Shown: positions 186 to 26,591 of the stretch, piece after piece | Numbering within the stretch: position 1 is the first letter of the stretch | How the letters are laid out: each line of letters opens with the position of its first letter | NCBI GenBank assembly: GCA_963733265.1 | Contig: CAVTCF010000006.1 | Location: 57,269-121,268, forward strand | Direction: 5' to 3' | Source of the DNA: an uncultured beta proteobacterium | GTDB taxonomy: Bacteria > Pseudomonadota > Gammaproteobacteria > Burkholderiales > Gallionellaceae | Length of the DNA stretch: 64,000 nucleotides | The notes under the pieces: model-generated | Seen by the model: the letters and a program-made list of their open reading frames with translations, nothing else | The model's database searches: none | Told to the model about the DNA's origin: nothing | Program-made: the position numbers and the translations under genes

Positions 186-752
186 TTGTTAAACAACGTG
201 CTGCAAGTCTCACTCAAGGAATTCAAACGTGGCACCAAGGTCTTTCAAAGGAAGCGGTTGAAGTTTGGCCCAGTGCTGCTCGCCTATGAAAATGGCTTCC
301 TCTCGATTGAATCAGGCGAAGTGACTAGCGTCATGAATGCCATTGGCGAATGGCATGGCCGGGCGGTATTTTCCCCTAATATTTTGCAAGCGCTTGCGAT
401 GTTTCCCCCACTGCAAGACCCCGTTCAAATTTCATACGACGGCGAACATTTGTTTGTAGGCAGCATGAAAATCATTTGCCAGTGGAATACTGTCAGCCAA
501 GCATTCATTGAAGACTTGGAAAATCCGAGCTTGATAGACTTGCTGGCACTTAAAGAAACCGTCTCCCGGTCTGAGATTGGCGGATCAAGCTTGGGTAGGC
601 AAATCCGCAGCGCGCACGAAAAGGCCGAACGCCGCATCATGAATGCAGCCAAGCAATTGCAGGACTTGGAAATCACTGAGGCGGAAATTCGAGCGCTCGT
701 TGATATACGGATTGTGACTAGGCTTCAAGCGGGCAAGCAGCCTGCGGCGTGA
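186..752 (+). CDS. hypothetical protein (188 aa)
   Basis: Clean long ORF with a TTG start 6 nt after AGGAGG (174-179), divergent from the HTH gene. I recognise no motif in it. Confidence 0.6.
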   Translation: MLNNVLQVSLKEFKRGTKVFQRKRLKFGPVLLAYENGFLSIESGEVTSVMNAIGEWHGRAVFSPNILQALAMFPPLQDPVQISYDGEHLFVGSMKIICQWNTVSQAFIEDLENPSLIDLLALKETVSRSEIGGSSLGRQIRSAHEKAERRIMNAAKQLQDLEITEAEIRALVDIRIVTRLQAGKQPAA

Positions 753-774
753 GGGTAATCATTCATTGGGGAGC

Positions 775-2035
775 CACTTGGGGCGGATGGGAGGCGTGGC
801 CGGTGAGCGGGAAAGGAGCAGCGCAGCGCGACCCCGCGCAGCCTGACAGGCTGGGTGGGCGGGGGCAATAAACAGAACGCGCAGCGGCCAAGCCTGAATC
901 TCAGGGTGGTGTGTGGCAATGAAAAAGCCGGTGCCGGGGTTTTGTCCGGCATGGTTTTTTTGTTGACGCGCACGACCCGCACACGACAGCGGTGGCGTGA
1001 CGGTGAAGGCGCACTTGGTTCATGCCTGCACCGTGACGTTGCCGCGATAAACAAAATGCACTTCCGCTGTGAACGATACCGCGCAGCGACCACGCCTCAC
1101 AAAAACAAACCAAACCGGCGTAGCCGACCGAATAAGCATTGCCTCGCCTTGCCCGTCTCTGCGCGAACCAGCGGGCGATGCAGGGCGCAAGCCAGTGGAC
1201 GGTGCGCGGGGATGCAGGTTTACCCAAGGCAAGGGGTGGCAGTGCGGACGGGTGCGGCCATGCCTTTGCTTCACTTGGCCGCTGGGGGAGGGGGGGCGTT
1301 AGCGGGAAAGCGCCCCCCACATAAGCCGCGAAGCGACCACAACAAGACAAGACATAGACCGGCACGACCATGCAGCAAAAAGCGAAGGGGCGGCGCAACA
1401 CCAGCCCCGTTTTGCTGCCCCTCACCGCAGGTGATGGAATTTGACTTTGACTTGTGTGGCGATATTTACCCGAAGGGCGCAAGACATAAAGGCCTCTTAT
1501 GCGAACCCGAAGGGCGGGAGTTTTCCGGCGCTTGCGCTTTGCATAAGACGCCTTTATGTTAAACACCGCCACACACATAACCGGCGCAGCCGACAACGCC
1601 TTGCCAGAACGTCGAGAGGGGCGCGGCACGTTCAGGCTACCACTGCACCAGCAGCCTGCGAACGGCGAGCGCTTGATGGCGTAGCGGACTTTGGCGAAGC
1701 CATGAAGTGCGACGGCGTGAAGCGGCTGCGGCAACGGAGGGAAACCAGAGTGTAACAGCGCGCAAGCCGATGGCGGCTTTATGCCTTCGGCGCTCTCTCC
1801 GACTACTCATGCACTAGCCGACAGCGAACCGCAAGCCCTTGGCGAGGTACTTTTCGCGAAGGGCGCAGTGGTGAGGTGACGGCGGTAACGGAGCGGACAC
1901 ACTGGGCTACGGAGCTAAAGCAGAGGGCAGGATCATCGCCTTCTGCGCTCTGTCCGATACCACTGCGATAGCGAAGGCGCGGGGCTTGCGCTTTATCTTG
2001 CAAGCGCCGTGACTGAGCGGTCAACGGAAGAGCTT
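775..2035. other. G+C-rich, ORF-poor, hairpin-dense block (apparently non-coding: structured RNA or relic of high-GC mobile DNA)
   Basis: The only ORFs overlap each other on both strands and are Arg/Pro/Ala/Cys-rich junk. Hand counts on single 60-nt lines give about 70% G+C at 1261-1320 and 55% at 1081-1140, against about 37% at 3601-3660. Perfect stems: GGGGGGCG/CGCCCCCC (1291-1298/1311-1318), and an 18-bp stem with one mismatch (1484-1502/1541-1559). ACCCGAAGGGCG occurs twice (1468-1479, 1505-1516). Diverged ~155-nt repeat units start at 1782 and 1937. Confidence 0.5.
922..961 (+). terminator. Rho-independent-type hairpin flanked by A5 and T7 tracts (could work in both directions)
   Basis: aaaaaGCCGGTGCCGGggttttgtCCGGCATGGttttttt. 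The TGCCGG/CCGGCA core stem has extra GC pairs and is followed by a T-run at 955-961. Confidence 0.45.
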
Positions 2036-2118
2036 GAGAGACTGCGACTGCGGGAATTGCTGAAGCCGGTTCAATCGCCTAGCAAATTTCTGGTTTACCC
2101 ATGGGTTTACCCATGAAG

Positions 2119-2162
2119 CGTAAAAAGAAAAATGGCTTGCCGGGATTAACCTGCAAGCCATT
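2119..2162 (-). terminator. terminator immediately downstream of the tRNA 3' fragment
   Basis: Perfect 10-bp stem AATGGCTTGC/GCAAGCCATT (2131-2140/2153-2162) with a 12-nt loop. On the minus strand it is followed by TTTTCTTTTTAC. Confidence 0.6.
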
Positions 2163-2169
2163 GATTTAT

Positions 2170-2214
2170 TGGTGCGCCCGAAGAGATTCGAACTCCTGAC
2201 CCCTTGGTTCGTAG
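2170..2214 (-). tRNA. 3' fragment (anticodon loop to CCA, 45 nt) of tRNA-Arg(ACG); not an intact gene, att-type remnant
   Basis: The reverse complement reads CTACGAA-CCAAG-GGGTC-AGGAG-TTCGAAT-CTCTT-CGGGCGC-A-CCA. That is an anticodon loop with ACG, the 3' anticodon stem, the variable loop, a T arm with a TTCGAAT loop, the 3' acceptor strand, the discriminator and CCA. The upstream sequence (..AACTCGCC) cannot pair with CCAAG or with CGGGCGC, so the D arm and 5' half are missing. Confidence 0.7.
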
Positions 2215-2349
2215 GGCGAGTTTCTGTTTTTAGGGCTTTATTAATCAACCGCTTACGATGCCCGCAACATCGAAAACTAGCCTCAAATAGCGCTGAATAG
2301 CGCCATTAGTGCCCTGTCACGTGACAAATCGGTGACAGTAGATTTTAGC

Positions 2350-2559
2350 TTAGGCCGCGATTGCATCTGGAAAATGATGCAATACCATTAATGCATTTTC
2401 AGACACCGCACACATGGCGTAAGGTATTCCATTCAGATCGGCAAACTCAACCTCCACTACATCTGGGGCAAGATTTTCCACCACGGTTCCAACTTGACCA
2501 CGGCGAAGATGTTTTTCAGGTATATCACTCGTAAGTGCAACAACTTCTAATGTTTTCAT
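2350..2559 (-). CDS. DUF4926-like small protein (69 aa from the internal ATG)
   Basis: MKTLEVVALTSDIPEKHLRRGQVGTVVE...EVEFADLNG matches my memory of the DUF4926 pattern. GAGG lies 7 nt upstream of the ATG at 2559. The ORF-track start at 2583 is less likely. Confidence 0.6.
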   Translation of the reverse strand: MKTLEVVALTSDIPEKHLRRGQVGTVVENLAPDVVEVEFADLNGIPYAMCAVSENALMVLHHFPDAIAA

Positions 2560-2790
2560 TCGGTACCTCGCAATACGTAGCAACTAACTAATCGAGGAAC
2601 ATCCTCGCCTGTTTTGATTATCCAAGCAGTCCGAAGCAAAGCTTCGCGACTCCCCCATTTTAAGACTAAATCAAATGTTTAGCGGCAACCATATTTATCA
2701 GAGCCGGTATCTTTGTACCATATGGTAACCAAGATTTCTCTCTGACCGCTGGTAAAGCAAAAACTGCTTTTAATGCGCAATAATGCTTTT
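2556..2790 (-). pseudogene. frameshifted remnant of a DUF6883-like partner gene
   Basis: One reverse-strand frame gives ..GSREALLRTAWIIKTGEDVPRLVSCYVLRGTE*, whose stop overlaps the DUF4926 ATG (ATGA). A different frame further upstream (..LPYGTKIPALINMVAAKHLI*) would have to be joined to it. The C-terminal W-i-i-k-t...PRL-v-s-x-Y pattern resembles DUF6883. Confidence 0.3.
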
Positions 2791-2835
2791 TGTTTCACTG
2801 CGTAGGCAATTTCAAAACTATTGGGTGCTTAATGA

Positions 2836-3588
2836 TCACCAATGCAACGGTTTCCTTGCTGCCTTCTTTTTGGTTGGCACAACATCTGGCAAAAGTGATT
2901 TAGAAAGCTCATCATCAAGAATGTAGTGACGTGTCCAATTTGCCAACTTCTCCAATTCAGTATTGCCGCGCCTGTGGCGATTACTATTCGGTTCATGTAA
3001 TGGTGCAACGATCCCGACGCTACATTCAGAAAAGTCTGCTTGAATGGCTTTGACTGCAGGCACTAAATCAGAATCGTTGGAGCAAATAATTACTGTATTA
3101 GCTTTGCCTTGTGCAACGTCACGATAAATAGAAAGCGCAATATTGACGTCGGTTTGCTTTTCCTCAATACGCCAAACTGAAAGTCGGTCTTTCTTGTCAG
3201 GCGGATCACGGAAGGTCATTAAACGAGCTTCCTCTGCAGTATGGTATCCAAAAATGATTTCGATCTCACCGGGATACTTTGCATTAAGTGCTCGGTGATA
3301 TTCATTTTGCGCAGTAACTGAGTTCACACCATGCGAAGCAAACTTGCCCATGGCTGGCGCGGTAAAGTATTTCACTACTTCAACAGTAGTATTCGGCAAT
3401 TGCGGTTTTAATATCTGATCGCGAAAAAGGGCAACTAAGTCCAGCCACTTGTAAGTGGTGCCTCGGAGTCTACTGTAGTAAAGGTTGTATCCGTCAATAT
3501 AGACGATTGCACGTTGCTGTTTCATAAATTCCGATAGGTATAAATGACAAAGCCACCTTTCGGCGGCCTTGTCGCCCCAGTTGGTCAT
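2836..3588 (-). CDS. NYN (PIN-like/LabA-like) domain protein
   Basis: AIVYIDGYNLYYS... near the N-terminus and ..VIICSNDSDLVPAV.. are typical of the NYN fold. An alternative start is the ATG at 3525 (MKQQRAIVYIDG). Confidence 0.7.
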   Translation of the reverse strand: MTNWGDKAAERWLCHLYLSEFMKQQRAIVYIDGYNLYYSRLRGTTYKWLDLVALFRDQILKPQLPNTTVEVVKYFTAPAMGKFASHGVNSVTAQNEYHRALNAKYPGEIEIIFGYHTAEEARLMTFRDPPDKKDRLSVWRIEEKQTDVNIALSIYRDVAQGKANTVIICSNDSDLVPAVKAIQADFSECSVGIVAPLHEPNSNRHRRGNTELEKLANWTRHYILDDELSKSLLPDVVPTKKKAARKPLHW

Positions 3589-3919
3589 CGGAAACCCGAC
3601 TCCAATAGGGGAGAGTTGTTTGATTATGATATGGCGACATAGATACCTCTGTCAAATTTTTTCATCAGTGGCTGCAACGCAAGCTAAAAATCAGCTAATT
3701 TATTTTCAACCATTTGGAAAGCGTCTCATACCGAAGCACAATCAATACCCGCAGTACTATTTAAATTGCAACTTTTCTGCATTGCAGGGTGCAAACCAAG
3801 TTTAAAATCCCAATATTCTGGCTATACATTCCCAATCAGACGAGACAATCTGGCTCTTGTAAATCGAATCATCCAATCGGGTCGATAACAATTCGAGGAT
3901 GGCTTGAAAGAAACTAAAG

Positions 3920-4276
3920 TTAGTCCTTGTAGTCCTTGGACAATAAGATATATTCCTTTTGGTATTTATCAAACAGAGTTTGTAAGTCAGCTTCTTCAAG
4001 AGTTTTGGGGTAAGGGGGAGTTCCCTTGCGTTTCAGAAACTTCCACAATAATTTTATTGCGTAGTAATGATCAGTAAGAGTTCGAATTGCCAATTGCTCC
4101 GAGTTATACCATTCGTGAGCATGTTGCTTGCCAATTTGATCTGGCCCCTTAACTCCCTTCGAATTCTTGCAAAATTCAAAAAATAGTCTAATACGGCGGA
4201 TGTATTTACGGCGACTGATTTTGCCACCCTTCTTACAATATTCATTTAATCTGAATTCCAATTCATACCACAACAT
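3920..4276 (-). CDS. phage-integrase N-terminal SAM-like domain protein (probably the surviving 5' part of a second, truncated tyrosine recombinase)
   Basis: 118 aa covering only the core-binding-type N-domain. The start overlaps the stop of the upstream integrase. The downstream out-of-frame ORF 3802..3999 contains ..QAILELLSTRLDDS.., vaguely like the box I region (..IVSLCRELGLRSKEA..) of the neighbour, which suggests frameshift plus truncation. Confidence 0.5.
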   Translation of the reverse strand: MLWYELEFRLNEYCKKGGKISRRKYIRRIRLFFEFCKNSKGVKGPDQIGKQHAHEWYNSEQLAIRTLTDHYYAIKLLWKFLKRKGTPPYPKTLEEADLQTLFDKYQKEYILLSKDYKD

Positions 4277-5222
4277 ATTTACGTCCTCCTATGTAAGAGT
4301 TCATAATTTGAGTCCTAGAGTGCCCGAGCTCCTCAGCAATTATTTTTCTCGCATTGAGATCCGTCTTCTTGTCTGCATGAGGCCCCGGAAGGAGAGGTGA
4401 ATTGAAACCAGTCAATTCTGTATATCTCTGGCACGCGTACCCGGCTCTGAGGTCATGCAGGCCGGTCGCACCGAGAAATTTCTGTACTGCTTCGCGAATT
4501 TTTCTAAGACCGCCTTCTCTCCACGACCGCCAACTCTGATCAGATGGAATCATTGATTTGTCTTTACCTTGAACAGTTGCGGCCAATTTTAGAGCTTCAA
4601 TTTGCTCAGTCGAAGTGATTGGAATCGTGCGTTTACGGCCTCCCTTTGTCCCGCCAATAACCGTAATTTCATTTTTTGACAGAGCCTCAGACAAAAGTTT
4701 TCTCGCGTTAGCAAGACTCGCCTCTTTTGATCTCAACCCGAGTTCGCGGCACAAAGAAACGATGGCAGCGGCACGTTCACCGAAGTAAACAGATATTGAG
4801 TTTAGGCAACTCGTATAGTTAACACGATCCAAGCTCGCGGGAATGGTGATCCTCACCTGAGATTTCTTCGGGATGCCGCAGTCCTTTGTCGGGGAAATCG
4901 ATCCCCAACGACCATGGGTGGCTAGGTTCATAACGCTATTGATTGCAGAAATATAGTTTTGCGCCGTGCTGGCCGCCAGTTCTCCTTCTGCGACCCGATG
5001 CGCCAACTCCTGTCCATAGTCGATAATTACCGCGACGCTAATATCTTCTAATTTCTTAATGTCCGGGTTGTATTCTTTTAACTCCTTAACAAATTTATTA
5101 AAGCGGGCTGTTTGGGTGCCGGCAGTGGAATGACTTTTAAATCCAAGTTCCACCGAATCTTTTAATGCAAACCCCACCGACTTTTTCATGTCACGCGAAC
5201 CTGATCTAAAATTTTTTGCCAT
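4263..5222 (-). CDS. tyrosine-type site-specific recombinase/integrase
   Basis: Catalytic signature in order: ELGLRSKEA (Arg), GGTKGGRKR (Lys), HDLRAGYA (His-x-x-Arg), LGHSRTQIMNSYIGG (His..Tyr). The likely start MAKNFRSG follows GGAG; the ORF-track start at 5288 is upstream of that. Confidence 0.75.
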   Translation of the reverse strand: MAKNFRSGSRDMKKSVGFALKDSVELGFKSHSTAGTQTARFNKFVKELKEYNPDIKKLEDISVAVIIDYGQELAHRVAEGELAASTAQNYISAINSVMNLATHGRWGSISPTKDCGIPKKSQVRITIPASLDRVNYTSCLNSISVYFGERAAAIVSLCRELGLRSKEASLANARKLLSEALSKNEITVIGGTKGGRKRTIPITSTEQIEALKLAATVQGKDKSMIPSDQSWRSWREGGLRKIREAVQKFLGATGLHDLRAGYACQRYTELTGFNSPLLPGPHADKKTDLNARKIIAEELGHSRTQIMNSYIGGRKYVVV

Positions 5223-6402
5223 TTCAATCTCCAATCTCAAATATCCAAAGTAATAAATAAATAACAATAAAAGCGATAAAAACTGCAAGAAGACAGAGGG
5301 GAGGGGCTAGATTTGGCACCCGCCAAGTCCCCCTCTGTCAAAAAACAAACTTCATTTGCGCCCCAGTGGCGGGTGGTAAGTGTTACGCAGCGATTGCAGC
5401 TCGCGCAGGCGTCCACAAACAAGTTCGTTTTCCGGTTTTTATGGGCTGCCGGACAGCTGTGGTTTAGTTGGAGTATTTCTGCGCAGAAATGAAAATAAAG
5501 GAGGCTTGAGATTGGGAAATCGCGCAACTCTAATATAAAGAGATGTGCTCCGCATTCGTCGCGTGATCGCGTCTTCCGGGTTTCCAGGCCCAGACCTTTT
5601 TTCATTTTGCGAGTGCAGCATGAATCCATAAATAACTTCTGGAATTTGCTGCGGTATGATTAGAAAATATTCGTTTGAGAACATTTTCGTCCGTGTCCAT
5701 ATTTAAAGAAACTCAATAGGGGAGCGGGGTTTTACTGGTCGGCCAAAGGCCGTCTCTGTGTAAATGTCGAATTTAGGAAAACAATAACGACAGATGTTTT
5801 GAAGACATGGAAAACCACTTGTTGCTGGTGGTGGGCCATGAATTGAGGTTTATCCCAACTTGGTTTTGTGAAGTGGCTCATTTTATTGAGTCGGTTTGAA
5901 ATGTCGCTGCGTGCGACGCCGATTCTCAGCTGCGCTGAAGAAACCTTTGACTGTCAGAAGAACTCAGTCGCGAATGCGTTCGGAAGTCGGAATACATTCG
6001 CTACGAAGTTCGTTATAACAGACGGATCTAGTTTGGGAGTGAGACAGGCGCCTTTCGGCTGGTTTGAATTGCTGCGCTATCTTTAACGCCGTCAGCATGT
6101 GGCGAGTCAGAATCATAATGCCAGTTTTGCGATTTGTCACTCGCTTTTTACAACAATATGACCAAATTGGCTATGGTATAGCCTAATTGAAGCTGATGAG
6201 CAGCAATCCGCGTGCTTATTATTCCATCAGAGCGACCAGCGTAGCTCATTCGATATGAAAAACAAATAAAAAAAGAACGATCGTTCTGATGTGCCCATGA
6301 CATTTCAACTATATGATGTAAAAAGTAAAAAAAGATATTGTTTGATTAAGCAATAAATAGTAAGCTTAAAGTGACAAATTAGACAAAAAGTGATTTGCTT
6401 AA

Positions 6403-8939: not shown

Positions 8940-10540
8940 GGCCGATTGTGTTGAAAAACTCCCTCGATTTTTGACGCTGAGAATGGTACAATTTCTCCTG
9001 TCTAAATAAGCTGGGAGCCTTGATATGATTGGGTTACAGACAGATCAGCAAAAACGTCTTTTCTACTCTTTTGACCTTGAAGAACAGGTCCCTCAAAATC
9101 ACCTCCTTCGCGGCATTAATCGCCACCTCGATTTAAGTGAATTTCGGCAACATCTTTCTGAGTACTACAGCCATACCGGCAGACCCTCAATTGATCCTGA
9201 ACTAATCATCCGAATGCTGATCATTGGTTACAGCTTGGGTATTCGTTCCGAGCGTCGTCTTTGTGAAGAAGTACATCTGAATCTGGCATATCGCTGGTTC
9301 TGCCGTTTGGGTTTGGAAGATAAGGTTCCTGATCACTCCACCTTCTCCAAGAATCGTCATGGTCGCTTTCGTGAGAGCGATGCGTTCCGTCACTTGTTTG
9401 AGAGTGTGCTGCAACGTTGCATGACCGAGGGACTGGTGCGCGGGGAAGGATTCGCCACCGATGCCAGTATCATCAAAGCAGATGCACAGCGTGAGCGTGG
9501 TCTAAAAGGTGAGAGAGCGATGGATTGGTGCAAGCGCGAGGAAGCGATGCGCCCGGTTCGCGAATACATTGCTGCGCTGGAAGAAGCGAACGATACACCT
9601 GAGCCAACGAAAATGATTTCAATGACGGACCCCGCCTCAAGTTGGACTGCTGCACCAGGTGGCCCCGCATTCTTTGCCTATTCGACTAATTATCTGATTG
9701 ATCTTGAAGCTGGCATCATCGTCGATGTTGAGGCTTCCGCTGTCAACAAGGCGGCAGAGGTCGATGCAACCAAGACCATGATCGAACGTGTCGAAGAGAA
9801 ATTCGAGATCAAGCCGGATCGCTTGGTGGGTGATACGAACTATGGATCTGCCGCCATGCTTGGCTGGCTAGTAGATGAGAAGAAGATCGCGCCCCATACC
9901 CATGTAGCCGGTAAATCGGAGCGAAATGACGGGACACTTTCTCGCAGTGATTTCCAGTGGGATGAACAAGCCAATGAATACCGCTGCCCGGAAGGGCATG
10001 CGTTACGCTGCGATTGGCGTCCGTTCAAGAATCCTCGTGATCGAATTACGAAAGCCGATACGATTCTCTACCGCTCAAGCCAACCAGACTGTGCAGCATG
10101 CCCGAATAAGAATCGCTGCTGTCCGAACACACCGATTCGCAAAATCCCACGCAGTATTCATGAAAAGGCCAGAGACGTTGCACGAGCCATAGGAAAAACA
10201 GATGCCTTCAAGGAATCATGCAGGCAACGTAAGAAGGTCGAGATGCTCTTTGCGCATTTGAAGCGCATCCTAAATATGAACAAGCTGCGATTAAGAGGAT
10301 TCAGCGGGGCGCAGGATGAGTTCCTGCTGGCGGCGACTGCGCAAAATCTGCGACGAATGGCCAAATGGCTAGTACCTGATGCACCGGAGAAGAAAATAAT
10401 GCCTGCTTAAAGGCCAATAGGGGAAGTCGAACCGTCAAATCTAATCTTGCAAATCTGCGAGAGCTACTAAATAAAATTTAAATCAAACTTCAGCCCGAAA
10501 AACGGTAAAATATTTCCAGAGTTTTTCAACACAATCGGCC
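8940..10540 (+). mobile_element. IS1182-family (IS5-superfamily) insertion sequence, complete
   Basis: Perfect 22-bp terminal inverted repeats: GGCCGATTGTGTTGAAAAACTC at 8940-8961 and its reverse complement at 10519-10540. They bracket a single transposase ORF. I see no obvious target-site duplication. Confidence 0.85.
9025..10410 (+). CDS. IS1182-family DDE transposase
   Basis: The N-terminus ..RPSIDPELIIRMLIIGYSLGIRSERRLCEEVHLNLAYRWFCRLGLEDKVPDHSTFSKNRHGRF.. is the typical IS5/IS1182 N-domain. The C-terminus ..EMLFAHLKRILNMNKLRLRG.. is the typical tail. Confidence 0.85.
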   Translation: MIGLQTDQQKRLFYSFDLEEQVPQNHLLRGINRHLDLSEFRQHLSEYYSHTGRPSIDPELIIRMLIIGYSLGIRSERRLCEEVHLNLAYRWFCRLGLEDKVPDHSTFSKNRHGRFRESDAFRHLFESVLQRCMTEGLVRGEGFATDASIIKADAQRERGLKGERAMDWCKREEAMRPVREYIAALEEANDTPEPTKMISMTDPASSWTAAPGGPAFFAYSTNYLIDLEAGIIVDVEASAVNKAAEVDATKTMIERVEEKFEIKPDRLVGDTNYGSAAMLGWLVDEKKIAPHTHVAGKSERNDGTLSRSDFQWDEQANEYRCPEGHALRCDWRPFKNPRDRITKADTILYRSSQPDCAACPNKNRCCPNTPIRKIPRSIHEKARDVARAIGKTDAFKESCRQRKKVEMLFAHLKRILNMNKLRLRGFSGAQDEFLLAATAQNLRRMAKWLVPDAPEKKIMPA

Positions 10541-10556: not shown

Positions 10557-11795
10557 CTATGGCCGCTTGTATGGTTGGGCTGGTGTGATTGGTTTTTTTC
10601 TGTAATAGTTTAAAAGCCGAGGTGGAGGGGCCTATGGCCGCATCTGCTCTCCTTGCTGAGAGACAGACTCGCAAAGAATTCCCCCACCCACACCACCCAG
10701 CGTCGATGAGGAATCTAGCGGCTACGACCGCCGATTTGACCGCAAGCTAACGCCGGTGTGTCCACCCCAGCATCCTTGATCTTAATCACAGGAGACACAT
10801 CATGCAAACTCCAACCAAAATACTTGATATTGGCGGCGATGTCGCCAAGGATGAAATCGTCGTGGCCTGTTCGGAGGGAAGTTTTCCAACACGCCCACTC
10901 GCGAATCAGCGCACTGCTTTGCGGGCCTTTCTCAAGAAGCTACCTGCTGGCAGCCGCATCGGCATGGAATCCACCGGCATTTATCACGAGCTGTTTGCCA
11001 ACTTGGCTCACCAGCTTGGCTTCATCGTTTTTATACTTAATCCCAAGGATGCCCGCAATTACGCCAAGGGTGTTGGGATGCGTGGCAAGACCGATCGGGT
11101 GGACGCAGAACTTCTAGCACGCATGGTCGCACACGAACACACCAAACTACACGCCTGGATTCCGCCCACACCGGAACAATACGAGATTGCCCAGTTGATC
11201 AAACGCCGCGCCAAAATGACTTCCTTGCGTGCAGCACTCGGCATGTCGCTCAAGGGCGTGGATGGCTTTGGTACTGATCTCAAGTCGCTTAAAAAGCACT
11301 TCAATCAAGTCATTGCGCACATCGACCAGCGCGTCAAAAAGCTTGTCGAGGCAAATCCAGATCGCAAACAGCATGACGCGAATTTGCGCACGATCGACGG
11401 CGTCGGTCCGGTAGTTAGTGCTGCGCTCGTTAATGCGCTTGACCGTGTGCCCGTGAAGAACGCAGATGCCTTTGTTGCGTTCACCGGCTTGGACCCCAGG
11501 CCGGATGACTCCGGGCAGCATCGCGGCAAACGGCGTCTGTCCAAACGCGGCCCTTCCGAACTGCGACGTTTACTTTTTCTGGCTGCATTGTCTGCTGCAA
11601 AAACGAAGGTTTGGCATCCGCTCTATGTGCACTATCGCGATAAAGGTCTACCAAGTACTGCAGCTTTGGTCATCCTGGCTCGGCGCATTGCGCGCACAGC
11701 TTGGTCGATCTACACCCATAAGACTGTATTCGACCCGAAGCGACTAATAAACGCCTTGACATAAACCATAGAATCTTTACGGCAGGCAATATGGC
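10557..11795 (+). mobile_element. IS110-family element (boundaries approximate)
   Basis: An IS110-type transposase is preceded by ~240 nt of non-coding leader and has almost no 3' non-coding DNA. TATGGC occurs at both putative junctions (10558-10563, 11790-11795). As expected for the family, there are no terminal inverted repeats. Confidence 0.35.
10802..11764 (+). CDS. IS110-family transposase (DEDD-type)
   Basis: The N-terminus ILDIGGDVAKDEIVVAC...GMESTGIYH is RuvC-like DEDD. The C-terminus ..IDGVGPVVSAALV... is Transposase_20-like. GGAG lies 7 nt before the ATG. Confidence 0.85.
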   Translation: MQTPTKILDIGGDVAKDEIVVACSEGSFPTRPLANQRTALRAFLKKLPAGSRIGMESTGIYHELFANLAHQLGFIVFILNPKDARNYAKGVGMRGKTDRVDAELLARMVAHEHTKLHAWIPPTPEQYEIAQLIKRRAKMTSLRAALGMSLKGVDGFGTDLKSLKKHFNQVIAHIDQRVKKLVEANPDRKQHDANLRTIDGVGPVVSAALVNALDRVPVKNADAFVAFTGLDPRPDDSGQHRGKRRLSKRGPSELRRLLFLAALSAAKTKVWHPLYVHYRDKGLPSTAALVILARRIARTAWSIYTHKTVFDPKRLINALT

Positions 11796-14216: not shown

Positions 14217-15719
14217 ATGCCGAGTAATTGTCTTGTTGCCTGGATGGGGCGAACCGATCTTAAAGCTGCTGCGGGTGAGCGCGAGGCTGGCCTCGGCCCC
14301 ATTGCGCAGGGTGTGCAGGCGGGCAAGTACGATTCAATCTATCTTCTCAGTGATTTTTCGGCAGCGGAGTCGAAAGCTTATATCAAGTGGCTGACACCTA
14401 AGACAGATGCGGCGATTCACCTCCGCACAGCCAAGCTGACATCGCCCATCAACTTCGGTGAAATTTATGAGCGTGTATTGGAGGTGCTGGAGACAATTGA
14501 TCGGCACGGAGCGCAACTAACCTATCACCTTAGTCCCGGCACTCCGGCCATGGCCTCGGTCTGGATACTGTTGGCGAAAACGACCCACCCGGCTAGGCTG
14601 ATTCAGTCATCCCCACAATCAGGCGTCCAGGAAGCCGACATTCCTTTCGATATTGCCGCCGAATTTATTCCCAAGCTTCTGCAACAATCTGATGAGCGGC
14701 TAACTTCTTTGGCACAGGGTACGCCAGAAGAGAGTGCGGAATTCAGCAGCATCATCCATCGTAGCGCAGTCATGAAGCGAGTAATCGCGCAGGCCAGGCG
14801 CGTGGCCATCCGCTCGATCCCGGTGTTGATTGAAGGTGAGAGCGGCACGGGCAAGGAGTTGATGGCTCGCGCCATCCACAAGGCCAGTCCGAGAGCGGAC
14901 AAGCCTTTCATCGCAGTCAACTGCGGTGCAATTCCGCCCGAATTGGTGGAGTCCGAATTCTTTGGCCACAAGAAGGGCTCCTTCACTGGCGCAGTGGCCG
15001 ACCGCAAGGGCCACTTCGAACGCGCCGACGGCGGAACCATTTTTCTGGATGAAATCGGTGAGCTACCCAAAGCGATTCAGGTCAAGTTGCTGCGTACACT
15101 TCAAGAAAGTGAAGTCACTGCTGTCGGCTCCAGCGAGCCCAGAAAAATCGATGTCCGTGTAGTTGCTGCCACCAACCGCACGCTGATCAACGAGGTTGCC
15201 GATGGCAATTTCCGTGAAGACCTCTTTTATCGACTGGCGGTAGCCATTATAAAATTGCCGCCATTGCGCGAACGGTCTGGCGACATTTCATTACTGATTG
15301 ACGTGCTCTTGCGACAGGTAAACAACGCAGCTACGGATATAGGTATCAAACATAAGAAAATTTCTGTATCCGCAAAAAACCTTATGCTTCAGCATGTCTG
15401 GCCGGGCAATATTCGTGAACTGTTCAACACCTTGCAGCGAGCTGCCGTCTGGTCAGACGATGAATCCATTAGCTTAGAAGCAATCAAAGACGCGATATTG
15501 CTGTCACCCAAGGCAATGCGTGGTGATGATGGCATTTTGAATCGCTCCTTAGAGTCCGGCCTTGAGCTGGAAGCACTTATGACTCAGGTAGCACGGCATT
15601 ACATTGAACGGGCACTCGATCATACCCGTAACAACAAGACGCAAGCCTCTAAACTGCTAGGTTTTGGTAACTACCAGACCTTCACTAATTGGATGAATCG
15701 CTACGGTGTAGAACGATGA
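14217..15719 (+). CDS. sigma-54-dependent transcriptional activator with RtcR-like (CARF-type) N-terminal sensor domain
   Basis: AAA+ core: GESGTGKE, GSFTGA (a GAFTGA variant), ESEFFGH, RTLQESEVTAVG. C-terminal Fis-type HTH: NKTQASKLLGFGNYQTFTNWM. The N-terminal ~150 aa (..SIYLLSD...LSPGTPAMASVWILLAKTTHPARLIQSSP..) resemble the RtcR N-domain as I remember it. Confidence 0.85.
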   Translation: MPSNCLVAWMGRTDLKAAAGEREAGLGPIAQGVQAGKYDSIYLLSDFSAAESKAYIKWLTPKTDAAIHLRTAKLTSPINFGEIYERVLEVLETIDRHGAQLTYHLSPGTPAMASVWILLAKTTHPARLIQSSPQSGVQEADIPFDIAAEFIPKLLQQSDERLTSLAQGTPEESAEFSSIIHRSAVMKRVIAQARRVAIRSIPVLIEGESGTGKELMARAIHKASPRADKPFIAVNCGAIPPELVESEFFGHKKGSFTGAVADRKGHFERADGGTIFLDEIGELPKAIQVKLLRTLQESEVTAVGSSEPRKIDVRVVAATNRTLINEVADGNFREDLFYRLAVAIIKLPPLRERSGDISLLIDVLLRQVNNAATDIGIKHKKISVSAKNLMLQHVWPGNIRELFNTLQRAAVWSDDESISLEAIKDAILLSPKAMRGDDGILNRSLESGLELEALMTQVARHYIERALDHTRNNKTQASKLLGFGNYQTFTNWMNRYGVER

Positions 15720-15794: not shown

Positions 15795-18700
15795 ATGCAC
15801 GCCTCCCATACAATTTCGCTATCGCAGTCGGCCACCTCGGTCGAAGGGGGGCGTGTGCAATCTAAGAATTTCGAGTTTCTGCGTAATGCTCGCGCCGATC
15901 TGGCTGCCCTGGGTGGCTTTGCCGAGCATTATGCTTTCAACGACCCAGCGGGATCACTGGCTAAACTTCGATTATTTACCGAGCGAGTCGTCGATCTGGT
16001 CTATGACGCCTTCCGCCTACCTAAGCCATACCAACCAAACCTGAATGATCTTCTGAATGAGGATGCTTTTCGAGCTCGGGTTCCGACCGTAGTATTGACC
16101 AAGCTGCATGCACTGCGGATGCATGGCAACAAGGCCGTTCATGCCAACCAAGGCACAACGCCAACGGCACTGGCCATGGTACTGGAAGCGTTCGATATTG
16201 CCCGTTGGGTGTTCGTAACCTTTGACGGTGGGCTGGTTTCAGGCATTCATGCCTTCGTGCCACCCACGCCACCAGCCGATGCAAAGAAATTGGAGAAAGA
16301 TCGTCAGCGCCTGCTTGCCCAAATTGCTGAGCAGGAACAGCAGATGCAGGCAATACTGCAACAACTCGAACTGGCAAAAGCCCAACAAGTAACCGTTGAG
16401 CGGACTGAAGATGAATTGCAGCAGTTGGTTGCCAATGGTAGTGCTGCCGCAGATCAACTCGCTTTTGACGAGGCAACTACCCGACAGCGGCTGATCGACG
16501 CCATGCTCGTTTCCGTTGGATGGAAAGTCGGGCAAGCTGGCGCATCAACTGACGAAGTTGGCCAGGAGATTGAAATTCCGCAACCGCAGAACAAGACCGG
16601 CATCGGCTATGCCGATTATGTCCTGTGGGACGAAAACGACAAGCCTCTGGGCGTAGTTGAAGTCAAGCGTACCTCCAAGGATGCGGATGTCGGACGCACC
16701 CAAGCCGAGCTTTACGCTGATGGCCTTGAACAAAAATATGGCCAACGCCCGGTCATTTTTTATACCAACGGTTTTGACATCTACATTTGGGACGACGCCC
16801 AGAAGCAGACGCCACGCCGTCTGTTCGGCTTTTACTCAAAAGAAAGCCTGAAATACCTGGTCTTCCAGCGCCACCACAAACTGTCGCTCGACACGCTCAC
16901 TCCGAAATCAGAAATAGCGGGCCGGATGTATCAGATCGAAACCCTCAAACGCATTTGCGAGCGATTCAGCCTTGGCTATCGCAAATCGCTTGTCGTGCTG
17001 GCTACCGGTACCGGCAAGACCCGTGTCGCTGTTTCGCTGTGTGAGCTGTTGTCGCGTGCCAGATGGGCTAAGCGCATCCTCTTTCTGTGCGACCGGCGCG
17101 AACTGCGCAAGCAGGCGGATGATGTTTTCAAGGAATTCCTGCCCGGCGAGCCGCGCATCCACATCAACTCAAAAACCGCTGGCGACGTGACCAACCGTAT
17201 CTATCTCGCCACCTATCCGGCGATGATGCAGTGCTATGAAATGTTCGATGTCGGCTATTTCGACCTGATCATTGCCGACGAATCGCACCGCAGTATTTAC
17301 AACCGCTACCGTGATCTGTTTGTCTATTTCGATGCGCTCGAAGTGGGCCTTACCGCCACGCCCGTTCAGTTTATTTCCCGCAACACCTTCAAACTGTTTT
17401 CCTGCGAGAACGACGACCCCACTTCGTATTTCGGCTATCAGGAAGCCATCAGCCATGTACCGCCCTACCTTGTGCCCTTCGAGGTCTATACACATACCAC
17501 CGAGTTTCTGCGGCGGGGAATCGAGTACAAGAAACTTTCCAAGGAGCAGCAGGAGCAACTGGAAAATGACGAGGCCGATGCACAGTCCATCGACTACGAC
17601 GATACCGATATGGATCGGGTCGTGTTCAATAAGGACACCAATCGCGCCATCTTGCGTAACTTGATGGAGAATGGTCTCCGCGATGCAAGTGGTTCCCACC
17701 CCGGCAAAAGCATTATTTTCGCCCGCAATCACAACCATGCAGTATTTCTGGCGGGGATATTCGATGAGATGTATCCCCAATATGGTGGGGAGTTCTGCCG
17801 AGTAATTGATAACTACGATGTCCGTGCCGAGCAGTTGATAGACGATTTCAAAGACCCAAAGCATACGCTCACCGTTGCCATCTCTGTTGATATGCTGGAT
17901 ACCGGCATCGATGTGCCCGAAGTTGTTAATCTGGTGTTCGCGAAGCCGGTAAAATCCTATGTCAAATTCTGGCAAATGATCGGACGGGGAACTCGGCTAT
18001 GCGAAAATCTGAATGGGCCGGGTCAGGACAAAACCAAGTTCCACATTTTTGACCACTGGGGCAACTTCGCCTATTTCGAAGAGAGTTACCGCGAAGCCAA
18101 TCCTGCGATCAGCAAATCGCTGCTGCAAAAGCTTTTTGAGACCCGCCTACAATTGGCTGATACCGCGCTTGCAGTTGCGAAAGCTGATGCCTTCGACCTG
18201 GCCATCAAGCTGCTTCAGGCCGACATCGCGGCACTACCGGAAACCACCATCGCAGTCCGCGAGAAGTGGCGCGAGGTGCGTGAAGTCCAACGTGCTGGAG
18301 TGTTACCGGCGTTGAGTGCCGCAACGCGTTCATCCCTGCTCAAGGACATTGCTCCTCTTATGCAGTGGCGTGATACACGAAACTGGGAAGCAGCCTACCA
18401 GCTTGACCTGCTGATTGGGCGGATGCAGAGCGAACTGCTGAAGAAATCAGCCGAGTTCAATAATCTGCGGGACGACCTCATCGGCCTCGTTGCGCAGCTA
18501 CCCATTAACGTCAATGTCGTTCGCGACAAACTGGCCACCATCGAAAAAGTACGCAGTGGTGATTTCTGGAAGCTGATCACTGATCAAACCGATGTGGCTG
18601 CACTTGAATCGTTAAGAGAGGAATTGCGCGGAATCATGCGGCATCGCGTGGATGGGCCTACCGTCGGCGGCAAACCGCGTGTTCTGGACATTACAGAAGA

Positions 18701-19244
18701 TGCCAGCAAGATCGAGTTCGGTCGCCATATGCCAAAACTTGAAGGGACTGAATTGGTGGCGTACCGGCAACGCGTCGAGCAGGTGCTCGCTGGCTTGTTC
18801 GACACCAACCCGACATTGCGAAAAATTCGTCGCAGCGAACCCGTTGCCGAGTCAGATCTCATGGCCTTGGTCAGCCTGGTGCTTACCCAACATCCTGACG
18901 TGAATCTAACCTGGCTGACCGAGTTTTACCCTGATACCGCTGGCGATCTGGCGACGGCAATCCGTACCATCGTCGGCTTGGAGCCTGAAGTTGTGGCCGA
19001 GCGCTTCGGCGAATTCTTCGCTCGGCATCCACAGCTTTCGGCCAAGCAGCAGCGCTTCATGGCATTGCTGCAAAACCACATCGCCAAGTTTGGCATCGTC
19101 ACTCTGGACAAGCTCTACGAGTCACCATTTACCCAAGTCAGCGAGGATGGCCCCGATGGCGTTTTTGATGATGCCGAGGTTGAAGAATTGATCGCAGTAA
19201 TTGATGGCTTCCACCCTGCCAGCAATCAACGTGTCAACCAATAA
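15795..19244 (+). CDS. hsdR: type I restriction endonuclease R subunit with N-terminal DUF4145 and coiled-coil extension and EcoEI-type C-terminal domain
   Basis: NFEFLRNARADL...LRLFTERVVDLVY (DUF4145-like). ..GYADYVLWDENDKPLGVVEVKR.. (HsdR_N nuclease). LATGTGKT, IIADESHRS and QMIGRGTR (SF2 helicase). The C-terminus ..LSAKQQRFMALLQNHIAKFG.. is EcoEI_R_C-like. An alternative GTG start at 15855 follows GAAGGGGGG. Confidence 0.85.
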   Translation: MHASHTISLSQSATSVEGGRVQSKNFEFLRNARADLAALGGFAEHYAFNDPAGSLAKLRLFTERVVDLVYDAFRLPKPYQPNLNDLLNEDAFRARVPTVVLTKLHALRMHGNKAVHANQGTTPTALAMVLEAFDIARWVFVTFDGGLVSGIHAFVPPTPPADAKKLEKDRQRLLAQIAEQEQQMQAILQQLELAKAQQVTVERTEDELQQLVANGSAAADQLAFDEATTRQRLIDAMLVSVGWKVGQAGASTDEVGQEIEIPQPQNKTGIGYADYVLWDENDKPLGVVEVKRTSKDADVGRTQAELYADGLEQKYGQRPVIFYTNGFDIYIWDDAQKQTPRRLFGFYSKESLKYLVFQRHHKLSLDTLTPKSEIAGRMYQIETLKRICERFSLGYRKSLVVLATGTGKTRVAVSLCELLSRARWAKRILFLCDRRELRKQADDVFKEFLPGEPRIHINSKTAGDVTNRIYLATYPAMMQCYEMFDVGYFDLIIADESHRSIYNRYRDLFVYFDALEVGLTATPVQFISRNTFKLFSCENDDPTSYFGYQEAISHVPPYLVPFEVYTHTTEFLRRGIEYKKLSKEQQEQLENDEADAQSIDYDDTDMDRVVFNKDTNRAILRNLMENGLRDASGSHPGKSIIFARNHNHAVFLAGIFDEMYPQYGGEFCRVIDNYDVRAEQLIDDFKDPKHTLTVAISVDMLDTGIDVPEVVNLVFAKPVKSYVKFWQMIGRGTRLCENLNGPGQDKTKFHIFDHWGNFAYFEESYREANPAISKSLLQKLFETRLQLADTALAVAKADAFDLAIKLLQADIAALPETTIAVREKWREVREVQRAGVLPALSAATRSSLLKDIAPLMQWRDTRNWEAAYQLDLLIGRMQSELLKKSAEFNNLRDDLIGLVAQLPINVNVVRDKLATIEKVRSGDFWKLITDQTDVAALESLREELRGIMRHRVDGPTVGGKPRVLDITEDASKIEFGRHMPKLEGTELVAYRQRVEQVLAGLFDTNPTLRKIRRSEPVAESDLMALVSLVLTQHPDVNLTWLTEFYPDTAGDLATAIRTIVGLEPEVVAERFGEFFARHPQLSAKQQRFMALLQNHIAKFGIVTLDKLYESPFTQVSEDGPDGVFDDAEVEELIAVIDGFHPASNQRVNQ

Positions 19245-19263: not shown

Positions 19264-20907
19264 GTGGACAGCCAATTCCTTGCCCTAGTTACAGCCACCA
19301 TCGGCCTGGCCCTTGGCGTGCTGATTACCTGGCTACTGACCCGAGGCAGAATTACCGCCGCTGCCGAGCAGGGTAAAGCCGGGGTTGCGGTCGATCTTGC
19401 CATGGCAAATGAACGAGCGCGCTCCATTGAAGCGGAACGTGGGAAACTGAGTGAGGCGCACGAGCAACTGCAATCACAAGCAAATGGGTGGAAGAACGAA
19501 CTCAACCAAGCCCGTGATGAGCTTTCCAAGCTGAACGAGCGGGCCAGTCGAATTCCTGTGCTTGATGAAAAATTGGTTGGATTAGAAGGTGCATTGGCAG
19601 AAGCGAGCCAGCAGGCCGCCGTCTTGCGCGAAGCCTCCGGTCGCATCAATGCCGAGCTCAAGGCTGAGCGCGAGACCCTAACCTCACTACGCAGCGAATT
19701 CCAGGCGGAAAAGTTACAGCGCACACAGGCCGAGGCGCAGGTCAATAGTCTCACCACGGAAATGGCTGAACTGAACACCCGCCTTGATGCCGAACGCAGA
19801 CAGGCACAGGAAAAGCTCGCGCTGCTGCTGGAAGCCAAGGAAGCACTGTCCAATCAGTTCAAGAGTCTCGCCAACGACATTCTGGAAGAAAAATCCAAGC
19901 GTTTCATCGAACAGAACCAGACCAACATTGGCCAACTCATCAATCCGTTAAAGGATCGGATAATGGAGTTCAAAACCAAGGTTGAGGAAATTCACACCAA
20001 GGATACAGAGCAGCAGGCAACGCTCAAAGCCGAGCTGACTCAACTGAAAGACCTGAATCGCCAAATGACCGAAGAGGCACACGGTCTGGCAACGGCACTT
20101 AAGGGGCAAGCCAAGAAGCAAGGCAATTGGGGCGAGCTGGTTCTCGGCAATGTACTTGACCGCTCTGGCCTGCGCGAGGGTCAAGACTTCAAGCGCGAGG
20201 TCAGCTTCAACACCGAAGAAGGCCGCAAGCGTCCGGACGTCATAATCTACCTGCCTCAGTCGAAGCACTTGGTCATTGATGCCAAGGTCTCTTTGAATGC
20301 CTATACACGGTATGTAAATGCTGAGGACGATATCATTCGGCAGCAGGCATTACAGGAACATGTCAGCGCGGTTGCCAGCAGAATTCAGGAACTATCGAAC
20401 CGAGCCTATTTCGAGCTGCCTGGCCTCAATTCGCCTGAGATGGTCTTCATGTTTATCCCTATTGAATCTGCTTTTGTCGAGGCGCTGCGGGCTGACGAGA
20501 ATCTGTTCCAGAAAGCCATCGAGCAGAACGTGCTGGTAGCCACACCGACCACGCTGCTGACCAGCCTGAATATTGTGCGCCAGCTTTGGCGCTTTGAAGA
20601 GCAAAACGCTCATACCGCCGAACTCGCTGACCGAGCCGGAAAGGTATACAAAAAACTGGTCACCTTCCTTGGCAGTATGGAAACTGTGGGCAAACAGCTC
20701 GACAAGGCAAAAGAATCCTTCAACTCGGCCATGGGGCAACTCTACACCGGCAAGGGCAACCTGATTGGACAAGCCAAGGAATTTGAAAAGCTGGGCGTGT
20801 CTGTGCAGACCCCTTTACCCGAACATCTGGTGGCTAAATCGGCTCTGGAACTTGAACACCTGCCCGAGGTTACCGAAGGCAACGAACTGGAAACCAACGA
20901 ATTATGA
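19264..20907 (+). CDS. rmuC: RmuC-family DNA recombination/nuclease protein
   Basis: An N-terminal TM segment plus a long coiled coil, then ..[27 protein letters not shown]...[22 protein letters not shown].. (RmuC core). GTG start after AGGAGAG. Confidence 0.9.
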
Positions 20908-25716: not shown

Positions 25717-26591
25717 TGATCAAGGAGTTCGCGCTTGAGCCGGATGTGTTGGCGGTATCATTTCGGGATTTCAGCTACTTCATCGAAAAGTTCGGGGTAG
25801 CGCAGGGGCGCGTTATTTCGCGTTTCCCGAAGGACTGGAAGCGGATGGTGTACGAGGCAGCACAGGCCAGCCTGCGAGGCACCAAGGAATTGAGCCGTAT
25901 CGAAATCAGGCTCAGAGCCATCACGGATGATGTGCTGATTGCATCGCGACGCCCCAGTGGCGATGGCACACAACCTTGGCTGACCAGAGCGATGAGCGAG
26001 CATGGCCGCCAGCCGTTTGCCGCCATCATCGCCCGCGAAAATCCAACAGCACATACCGAAGTGCTCGTCGCCGCCGACCTGGATGATTCCGATTTGCGTT
26101 TTCAGGCTGCTGGTCAGCGACACATTACTCGCACAGCGGCAGAGATCGTTGATTGCGTGGGTTTGCTCCTTGGTGCGTCAAAAACGGTGAAATTGATCGA
26201 CCCGCATTTTGATCCGCGCTGGCCGCGCTGGCGGAGAATGCTCGGGCATGTATTGGTTGCTTTAGGCAACAACGGGCAGACCGGAGTAACACTGGAAATT
26301 CACCGCGCGGATAACGCGTTGCCCGGCAATTTGAAACACTATTTCGATTCAAGCATTCCAAAAATGCTTCCTACCGGGATCACCGTACAGGTCTTCCTGC
26401 ACCCGGAATCAGCGATGCATAACCGTTTCATCCTCACCAGCGTTGGTGGTGCCTCATACCACACCGGCCTAGACGATAACGAGGATGGGAAATCCACACC
26501 CACGGATTTAGTGTCGTTATTGGCACCGGGCATATTTGCAACAGAGTGGACGACATATTCAAGTCAAACGGCATTTTTGGTCTATCCATGA
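25716..26591 (+). CDS. hypothetical protein (291 aa), translationally coupled partner of the ATPase
   Basis: The start overlaps the ATPase stop (TGATG). I recognise no domain. There is a conserved-looking C-terminal stretch ..VFLHPESAMHNRFILTSVGGASYHTGLDD.. Confidence 0.7.
   Translation: MIKEFALEPDVLAVSFRDFSYFIEKFGVAQGRVISRFPKDWKRMVYEAAQASLRGTKELSRIEIRLRAITDDVLIASRRPSGDGTQPWLTRAMSEHGRQPFAAIIARENPTAHTEVLVAADLDDSDLRFQAAGQRHITRTAAEIVDCVGLLLGASKTVKLIDPHFDPRWPRWRRMLGHVLVALGNNGQTGVTLEIHRADNALPGNLKHYFDSSIPKMLPTGITVQVFLHPESAMHNRFILTSVGGASYHTGLDDNEDGKSTPTDLVSLLAPGIFATEWTTYSSQTAFLVYP

Follow-up and report, generated by a model that had tools for sequence, protein, structure and literature searches.

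What is the role of a block of about 1.25 kb that is rich in G+C and in hairpins, carries no credible gene and lies beside a piece of a tRNA gene in an uncultured betaproteobacterium of the Gallionellaceae? The block is located near the left end of a stretch of 64,000 nucleotides (nt) of contig CAVTCF010000006.1 (assembly GCA_963733265.1, positions 57,269 to 121,268), here called the window, and an original prediction from the letters alone placed it at 775-2035 and considered it either a large structured RNA or the fossil of a high-GC mobile element. Comparison with homologous loci shows that positions 768-2023 of the + strand are one copy, in the longest form (~1.26 kb), of a discrete, sharply bounded, hairpin-rich non-coding module. 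The unit is modular, its conserved helices covary and its copies follow rules of orientation and pairing. It is explained here, tentatively and at less than even confidence, as a large structured RNA that would form the tail of transcripts from the cargo, at their 3' end, and would act as an end-cap or insulator. Non-coding character, structure and residence in mobile DNA beside a tRNA attachment site are the parts of the original prediction that stand; the fossil or remnant does not, because the same two ends recur in ~75 copies and the block is conserved above the neighbouring gene, as a discrete unit is.

The copies were found with nhmmer on ~70 contigs; four are from named genome assemblies, all of them Gallionella metagenome-assembled genomes (MAGs), and the remainder are on metagenome contigs. 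All of them start with GGGAGCC and finish with GAGCGGTCA in unrelated flanks. In the alignment of the 25 complete copies the left border is TTTNR followed by GGGAGCCACTTGGGGCGG and the right border is GCAAGCGCCGTGACTGAGCGGTCA, beyond which no relatedness is found, and these ends, ~768 and ~2023 in the window, make the predicted limits nearly exact. The metagenome collection was scanned with an exact 20-mer common to both internal units, a requirement that samples close relatives only; 120 contigs were returned, of which ~60 hold the block, the others being chance matches within coding DNA. Mean pairwise identity between copies is 82-96% per module, and the block is more similar between loci (94.4, 92.5 and 90.2% nucleotide identity) than the adjacent open reading frame (ORF) (86.6, 81.6 and 82.6%). 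Loci are cited by L numbers: L002 and L003 (94% identity) and L005 (92%) carry the block and end in intact tRNA-Arg and tRNA-Ser genes, and the Gallionella MAGs L008 and L010 encode the block together with close relatives of the 188-aa ORF that precedes it in the window. Contigs with close relatives of this ORF carry the module too; most copies have no such ORF nearby, and no module was found, profile hidden Markov model search included, beside the relatives of the ORF in Zoogloea, Dechloromonas, Rhodocyclaceae and others. Assemblies tend to break within the module (L001 ends at the equivalent of window position 854, L004 at 1541, L008 at 1739, L010 at 1369), consistent with the presence of several variant copies in a community or genome. 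Only one copy is present in the window; a called 'protein' outside it, P0133, matches the translation of window 1221-904 on the - strand at 97% identity and has an unrelated N-terminus. Its contig of 158,236 nt has the length of the window's own contig, so that a second, partial copy probably lies elsewhere on the latter.

The G+C content, predicted to be far above that of the flanks, is 0.58-0.63 in 300-nt windows between 750 and 2050 against 0.39-0.46 between 2100 and 4300; the module as a whole has 61% inside an island of 42-46%, and its + strand (A.22, C.28, G.33, T.16 over 775-2035) is purine-rich, as in structured RNAs. High G+C alone is not diagnostic in the window, since a second stretch of ~60% G+C at 24000-26000 is coding (an AAA_15/21 ATPase and the next ORF). 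In the block, no coding signal is present and codon-position G+C is flat (0.61/0.64/0.60), the genuine neighbouring genes being periodic. The overlapping ORFs on opposite strands do exist, as described, with 235 aa (+) and 277 aa (-) and a composition rich in Arg, Pro, Ala and Cys; neither has a Pfam match, and the 277-aa ORF retrieves from the protein database only 71 Pfam-less 'proteins' with patchy coverage (14-81%). A protein-coding gene or pseudogene was rejected on these grounds: there is no periodicity and no conserved frame or domain, and the database 'homologues' are frame-broken, domain-less fragments.

The complete copies fall into size classes of 493-533, 661-687, 798-858, 977-979, 1093-1186 and 1250-1258 nt. 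The minimal form consists of the 5' module, a short A-rich linker, the large hairpin, module E and the 3' unit, to which longer forms add modules B, C and D and a second ~155-nt unit (Table 1). In module B, the predicted terminator-like hairpin (922-961) is located at 931-952 and is followed by T7 at 955-961. With an A-tract and a T-tract it has, in a scan of both strands, the form of a bidirectional terminator; a G+C-rich hairpin with a U-run, as in intrinsic terminators, accounts here for ~40 nt of the 1256-nt unit. It is invariant in the 25 copies having it and stands, with its U7, ~165-195 nt inside the + strand of the long forms. Module C is flanked by direct repeats (D5, D6), consisting of a CA-rich run and ACCGGCG(Y)AGCCGAC at 1105-1128 with a variant at 1345-1369, and copies that lack 1095-1365 are joined at this repeat. 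The 8-bp all-GC stem seen by eye, GGGGGGCG (1291-1298) with CGCCCCCC (1311-1318), belongs to this module. Farther on, the interrupted stem at 1484-1559 has 36-nt arms that are 81% complementary, and the duplicated sequence is the dodecamer ACCCGAAGGGCG at 1467 and 1504; the apex of this large hairpin is swapped wholesale between copies, with at least five unrelated versions that are each self-complementary, several with hypervariable loops. The two ~155-nt units are indeed spaced by 155 nt, and are 90% identical between 1783-1802 and 1938-1957 and match at 68% between 1704-1802 and 1858-1957. A TTGAC(N)TTGAC / TGACTTTGACT motif recurs at module junctions (1441-1452 in the window, 893-905 in some homologues) and in the 5' extension of the L096, L110, L115 and L143 copies; CGAAGG (5 times, 0.6 expected) and [AC]10 runs (11, 2 expected) are enriched as well, and all of these may serve as sites for protein binding or as single-stranded linkers.

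The helices of the module are maintained by compensatory changes. The covariation test suggested in the original prediction was applied to window 1440-1745 in 39 distinct copies, with 60 predicted pairs and 500 shuffles: 98.0% of the cells are paired (93.3% in shuffles), 17 pairs are changed on both sides (8.9 in shuffles) and the covariation score is 0.156 (0.076 in shuffles), three values that were equalled in 0 of 500 shuffles, counts that are not to be taken as probabilities. Sliding the partners by 1-3 columns left only 28-50% of the cells paired. In particular, the stem of the large hairpin shows AU>CG, UA>AU and CG>AU changes in 8-12 copies each, and helices 9-11 of module E are 97.7-99.5% paired, with seven of their pairs doubly changed. 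The hairpin of the 5' module occurs in two sequence types that are set apart by four double changes (CG>GC, GC>CG, GC>CG, GC>AU), found in six copies, and two copies have UA>CG; in the 5' module 96.2% of the cells are paired (90.1% in shuffles) and the covariation score is 0.18 (0.08 in shuffles). The 3' unit (50 distinct copies, mean column identity 90%) has conserved G.U pairs on the + strand and two doubly changed pairs; together with modules C and D it is too conserved for covariation testing, module C having a mean identity of 96%. Compensatory substitutions across homologues, the general sign of a structured RNA, are therefore found in the module, with weaker support in its 5' part.

Folding points to the + strand. 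Its z-scores against dinucleotide shuffles are -4.8 (751-1050), -2.7, -3.3, -4.5 (1651-1950) and -3.2, and its windows fold better than those of the - strand, except for the palindromic hairpin. RNAalifold energies are -85.8 (+) and -54.9 (-) for module B and -45.0 and -23.0 for module E, and equal elsewhere; the sums over the alignment, ~-324 and -265, differ because of these two modules. The use of the + strand thus appears favoured by z-scores and alignment energies, and RNA seems favoured over folded DNA by + strand folding energies and by the rules of orientation.

These rules concern the place of the module in the islands that carry it, which are integrase-bearing, tRNA-integrated islands of Gallionella-like bacteria in which it sits at the edges of a swappable region of defence genes. 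The islands hold varying subsets of tyrosine integrases (at least three types), AlpA, a helix-turn-helix (HTH)-zinc-ribbon protein and primase-like genes (one weakly matching RepB_primase, a different one carrying D5_N); the cargo that faces the 5' end includes type III Mod and Res, a type IIG enzyme, SNase, SIR2 and the 188-aa ORF. Within 400 nt upstream, the neighbour is an ORF on the same strand in 16 cases, often only 1-36 nt away, a tRNA on the same strand in three, an ORF on the opposite strand in six and another module, head-to-head, in six. Of the 49 neighbours within 700 nt downstream of the 3' end, 43 are convergent (31 ORFs and 12 tRNAs of at least five types) and the other six are co-directional. 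The stop codon of the integrase gene is 6-13 nt from the 3' end in L114, L120 and L137, and other convergent ORFs are ~20-30 nt from it, with no terminator between.

Wherever a contig has two copies (five cases), these are head-to-head. In L084 and L137 such a pair encloses 3.1-3.8 kb of cargo; in L143 (5340-7037), L115 (5743-7597) and L059 (2506-4486) almost nothing lies between the two copies, which are 6, 146 and 313 nt apart, respectively. In L143 a rightward P4-like integrase gene is followed by a long form pointing left, a short form pointing right and a leftward AlpA-primase operon; this pair is apparently an empty cargo site, whose junction GTCAAAGTCAGGTTTGAC contains inverted GTCAAA/TTTGAC with a 6-nt spacer. 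Cargo is also stacked at the 5' end, which is abutted by a 217-aa gene (cl7) in L087 and by a DUF6794 gene in L069 and L137. In L005, the 217-aa gene (cl7) and SNase-DUF6794 are followed by a 21-nt remnant of the module 5' end (GGGAATCACTTGGGGCGGATG, 5912-5932), by 183-aa and 295-aa genes and, ~1.6 kb downstream of the remnant, by a 5'-truncated module from 879. Three rearrangement breakpoints fall at module positions 21-25, with L029 and L122 matching the edge of the L005 remnant; the other rearrangement junctions examined show plain microhomology. A search for empty sites revealed stacked cargo and microhomology deletions only, and no filled site with a clean empty counterpart; no solo end-remnant was found beyond that of L005.

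The preferred explanation follows from this arrangement. The + strand of the module would be transcribed as the 3' end of cargo transcripts, which may begin at the promoter of the upstream gene, at an upstream tRNA gene or in a divergent promoter region. Once folded into a succession of long hairpins, such a transcript would be a large structured RNA element, which may end or stabilise transcripts exiting the cargo and prevent antisense transcription from running into the convergent integrase, primase or tRNA gene. Since pairs are head-to-head, a transcript leaving the cargo in either direction would enter a sense copy. As a side effect, the conserved sequence may offer a common stretch for the exchange or stacking of cargo between islands. 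A + strand tail of this kind would explain why upstream genes are co-oriented, why downstream genes are convergent and why the 5' ends of the pairs face inward, as well as the high G+C, the purine bias, the stability of the + strand and the terminator-like hairpin of the long forms.

Several observations weigh against it. A co-oriented upstream gene is missing from the six copies that form three of the pairs and from six more. The short forms lack the terminator-like hairpin, and in the long forms it would stop transcripts after ~190 nt, leaving ~1 kb with no obvious source of transcription. The aligned copies show no conserved promoter at the 5' end and no U-tract at the 3' end, and inspection by eye for sigma-70 and sigma-54 promoters (5' edge, region after the internal hairpin, minus strand at the 3' edge with TTGACC) gave no conserved -10. 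With helices predicted on both strands, G.U exceptions (32) are as frequent as A.C exceptions (31), so that wobble pairs do not identify the strand, and neither GNRA nor UNCG tetraloops show enrichment. Covarying pairs in the 5' module are no more numerous than in the shuffles (5 against 4.1; 156 of 500). All copies are close relatives and much of the covariation traces to few lineages. Finally, inverted pairs around cargo are, to our knowledge, without precedent among known large RNAs.

The symmetric wobble counts and the lack of tetraloop enrichment leave room for folded single-stranded DNA, and the main alternative, a serious rival although less likely than the RNA, is that of a DNA-level cis element of the island that would fold when single-stranded. 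It could be a recombination substrate for the capture or exchange of cargo, with the logic of attC/attI, or paired initiation or origin sites on opposite strands for the island primase; ssiA and ssiB serve RepB' in RSF1010, and ori and crr serve P4 alpha. Compensatory changes suit DNA hairpins equally well. The inverted pairs, with or without cargo, adjoin an integrase gene and the gene with the weak RepB_primase match, cargo is stacked exactly at the 5' end (L087, L069, L005), where the three breakpoints also lie, the flanks reassort on either side of the module and the ends have no conserved promoter or terminator, all of which would be at home in such a site. On the other hand, an element of 0.5-1.26 kb with at least 12 helices is far above any known attC, single-strand initiation (ssi), primosome assembly (pas) or cos site, and 61% G+C is unlike an origin; the microhomology of the deletion junctions examined reveals no fixed core, solo end-remnants are limited to L005 and the energies of the + strand exceed those of the - strand. 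That the module occurs with three or more types of integrase and with several of primase argues against one dedicated enzyme.

Improbable, though still worth naming, is an as yet undescribed system for cargo exchange with the module as its defining part, in which a large folded element, RNA or single-stranded DNA, would mark both borders of a defence hotspot in integrase/primase islands and allow orientation-specific capture, stacking or insulation, a logic like that of integrons with 0.5-1.3 kb in place of attC.

Somewhat more doubtful still is a selfish non-autonomous mobile element, foldback-like, similar to miniature inverted-repeat transposable elements (MITEs) or of the IS200/IS605 type with hairpins and no transposase, that would have spread recently through Gallionella islands and be conserved because it is young. 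This would suit the sharpness of both ends in many unrelated contexts, the very high identity among copies, the presence of several copies per contig (with the probable second partial copy on the 158-kb contig), the frequent assembly breaks within the module and a weak TTTNA preference in the 5' flank. Against this, the ends are not complementary and thus give no terminal inverted repeats, no target-site duplication is found in the 25 copies, no transposase lies consistently near copies, no empty site was found that the module alone fills elsewhere and the 64-kb window has only one copy; convergent neighbours in 43 of 49 cases and solely head-to-head pairs are not expected from random insertion, and the compensatory changes imply selection on the helices. 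Assignment to the transposons or MITEs was rejected for the same lack of complementary ends, duplicated flank and empty site. Hairpin elements of the IS200/IS605 type (palindrome-associated transposable elements, PATEs) have subterminal hairpins, a fixed 4-5-nt target at the left end and a Y1 transposase in the genome; the module has hairpins near both ends and the weak TTTNA preference, and no transposase was seen near any copy on the contigs.

Less probable again is a large non-coding RNA that would act in trans, as a relative in kind of GOLLD and ROOL, on a cellular or phage-related target, and would be encoded by a free-standing gene with a promoter of its own. Size, G+C content, structure, covariation and mobile DNA near a tRNA all accord with it, and a modular build with variable hairpin tips resembles other large RNAs. 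However, conservation begins abruptly at GGGAGCC with no shared -35/-10 upstream, the 3' end reaches almost to the stop codons of the convergent integrase and other genes without a terminator, inverted pairs exist and no Rfam family is recognised: a search of positions 500-2500 with Rfam 15 at E up to 10 (families covered include GOLLD, ROOL, HEARO, OLE, raiA, group I/II introns, RNase P and tmRNA) gave five chance-level hits of 15-20 bits, none wholly within 975-2110. An RNA that acts as a CsrA/RsmA sponge, which would have many GGA motifs in loops, was rejected, with GGA found 19 times (24.7 expected) and A.GGA six times (5.4 expected). A coding sequence that has decayed, or the inert remains of a high-GC element, to which the long ORFs on both strands and the ORFs that gene callers placed within some copies lent some appearance, is effectively refuted by the missing codon periodicity and Pfam matches, the frame-broken, domain-less 'homologues', the frequent 1-2-nt indels between copies, a conservation higher than that of genuine nearby genes and the covarying helices.

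In the window, the last cargo gene before the module is the 188-aa ORF. Upstream of it are HTH, tyrosine integrase and AlpA genes, and it has 141 homologues (E <= 0.001), none with an informative name ('hypothetical protein' at most); the few named sources and the genome loci are mostly Betaproteobacteria (Gallionella, Rhodocyclaceae, Zoogloea, Dechloromonas), with single hits in bins of other phyla; W56, G58, P74-P75, C98 and W100 are invariant in the family, and most relatives (L001-L022) are on integrase/AlpA islands. After the module, the spacer includes a hairpin that, read on the minus strand, precedes TTTTTCTTTTT and looks like the terminator of the tRNA gene. The tRNA fragment noticed at first is the 3' 47 nt of a tRNA-Arg(ACG) gene and reads as the remnant of an attachment site. 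Homology with the loci that keep an intact tRNA-Arg stops at 2214, the sequence from 2215 (2215-5629) being unrelated, and ARAGORN detects no complete tRNA in the entire window; for these reasons the tRNA gene was probably interrupted or pushed aside by a second element. Farther right, 6403-46154 looks like a large defence and toxin island.

Table 1. Positions of the module, its parts and the surrounding features in the 64,000-nt window
Feature	Position	Strand	Remarks
188-aa ORF	186-752	+	Last cargo gene, co-oriented with the module; ends ~15 nt before it; no Pfam match
Whole module	768-2023	+	Runs 5' GGGAGCCACTTGGGGCGG to GTGACTGAGCGGTCA 3'; ends common to 25 complete copies with unrelated flanks
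5' module	768-873	+	In every size class; hairpin GCGGG 807-811 with CCCGC 833-837, plus inner stem
Module B	874-1100	+	Long and medium forms only; long helix ~903-985 with the terminator-like hairpin as tip
Module C	1100-1370	+	Longest forms only; includes the 8-bp GC stem 1291-1318
Module D	1366-1450	+	Hairpin ~1372-1417, then TTGACTTTGAC; RNAalifold on 38 copies: 18 pairs, no double changes
Large imperfect hairpin	1453-1575	+	Inner stem 1484-1559; outer stem GTGTGGCG with CGCCACAC; inverted repeats I1, I2
Core module E	1600-1745	+	Long hairpin ~1648-1735 (CAGCAGCCTGCG ... CGGCTGCGG)
Extra ~155-nt unit copy	1740-1882	+	Variable: in about half of complete copies; absent from L002
3' unit	1883-2023	+	Hairpin 1908-1956 (CGGAGCTAAAGCAGAGGGC ... 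GCCTTCTGCGCTCTG); terminal hairpin ~1981-2010 with variable loop
Spacer	2024-2167		Common only to copies adjoining tRNA-Arg; hairpin 2131-2162 (inverted repeat I9)
tRNA-Arg(ACG) fragment	2168-2214	-	3' 47 nt
DUF4926	2350-2583	-	Right of the tRNA fragment
NYN-domain protein	2836-3588	-	
Integrase-like ORFs	3920-4276; 4263-5288		Integrase_1 (second ORF)
AAA_14/DUF4143 ATPase	within 6403-46154		
IS5-like DDE transposase	9025-10410		
IS110-family transposase	10802-11764		
Sigma-54 activator	14217-15719		RtcR-like N-terminus
Type I HsdR	15795-19244		
RmuC	19264-20907		
AAA_15/AAA_21 ATPase	23599-25716		
DEAD helicase	30155-36445		2096 aa
RHS-repeat protein	38329-43017	-	
Transglutaminase-like protein	within 6403-46154		

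A literature search found no description of such an element, and nothing shows the origin from a high-GC donor that the original prediction entertained. A match to a known plasmid or phage was not found either: BLAST against plasmids and phages returned the tRNA-Arg fragment only, and four exact core patterns gave nothing real in the viral contigs of IMG/VR. The systems that the module resembles, i.e., GOLLD/ROOL RNAs, cos-bounded hotspots, integrons and REP sequences, each fail on defining features. GOLLD and ROOL (Rfam RF01998 and RF03087) are large non-coding RNAs of mobile DNA, often near tRNA genes. Like them, the module is several hundred nt to more than 1 kb long, non-coding, richly structured and carried by mobile DNA, often near tRNA genes; the suggested link with them failed, with no Rfam family reaching its gathering threshold in the whole window, and the module differs in the absence of a sequence or structure match, in having no promoter or terminator of its own, in its size classes of 0.49-1.26 kb, in its inverted pairs around cargo and in the rule of convergent neighbours. 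Repetitive extragenic palindromic (REP) sequences and bacterial interspersed mosaic elements (BIMEs) are G+C-rich hairpins after stop codons that are thought to stabilise or terminate transcripts. The module shares with them G+C-rich hairpins after stop codons between convergent genes; in contrast to their 20-40-nt units, present in hundreds per genome, it is one complex unit of 0.5-1.26 kb that occurs once in 64 kb.

In P4-like satellites and P2-like phages a variable defence locus is bounded by the cos site and the integrase gene (Rousset et al. 2022, PMC9122126). Similarly, a conserved non-coding module and an integrase bound a defence cargo that includes type III and IIG restriction-modification, SNase and SIR2; unlike cos, the module is 4-10 times longer, may stand on either side of the cargo as an inverted pair and gave no match in the viral contigs scanned. 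A P2/P4-type cos site was rejected, since the only matches to the P2 and P4 cos regions are chance ones of 9-15 nt, which are not significant; a cos site peculiar to Gallionella is conceivable.

In integrons, attC is an imperfect palindrome bounded by RYYYAAC and GTTRRRY and found in direct arrays with intI. An integron attC was rejected for the module, which measures 493-1258 nt against 57-141 nt and ends in GGGAGCC and GGTCA with no GTTRRRY core; its copies form inverted pairs in place of direct arrays, and no IntI-type integrase was identified. As in integron cassettes, a co-oriented palindromic element of conserved structure comes after a gene or operon, and new cargo is stacked at one defined end. 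Whichever likeness is followed, the ends GGGAGCC...GAGCGGTCA are a sequence handle that can be used to find the cargo regions of islands in iron-oxidising Betaproteobacteria. If it is a folded-DNA site, the module would be a new kind of landmark for the acquisition and exchange of defence systems by islands and satellites; should it be an RNA, it would join the very few bacterial non-coding RNAs longer than 500 nt as a new family and bring what the others lack, a clear positional grammar (at the border of swappable defence cargo, with the sense strand facing outward-bound transcription, and often paired) that makes its function directly testable.

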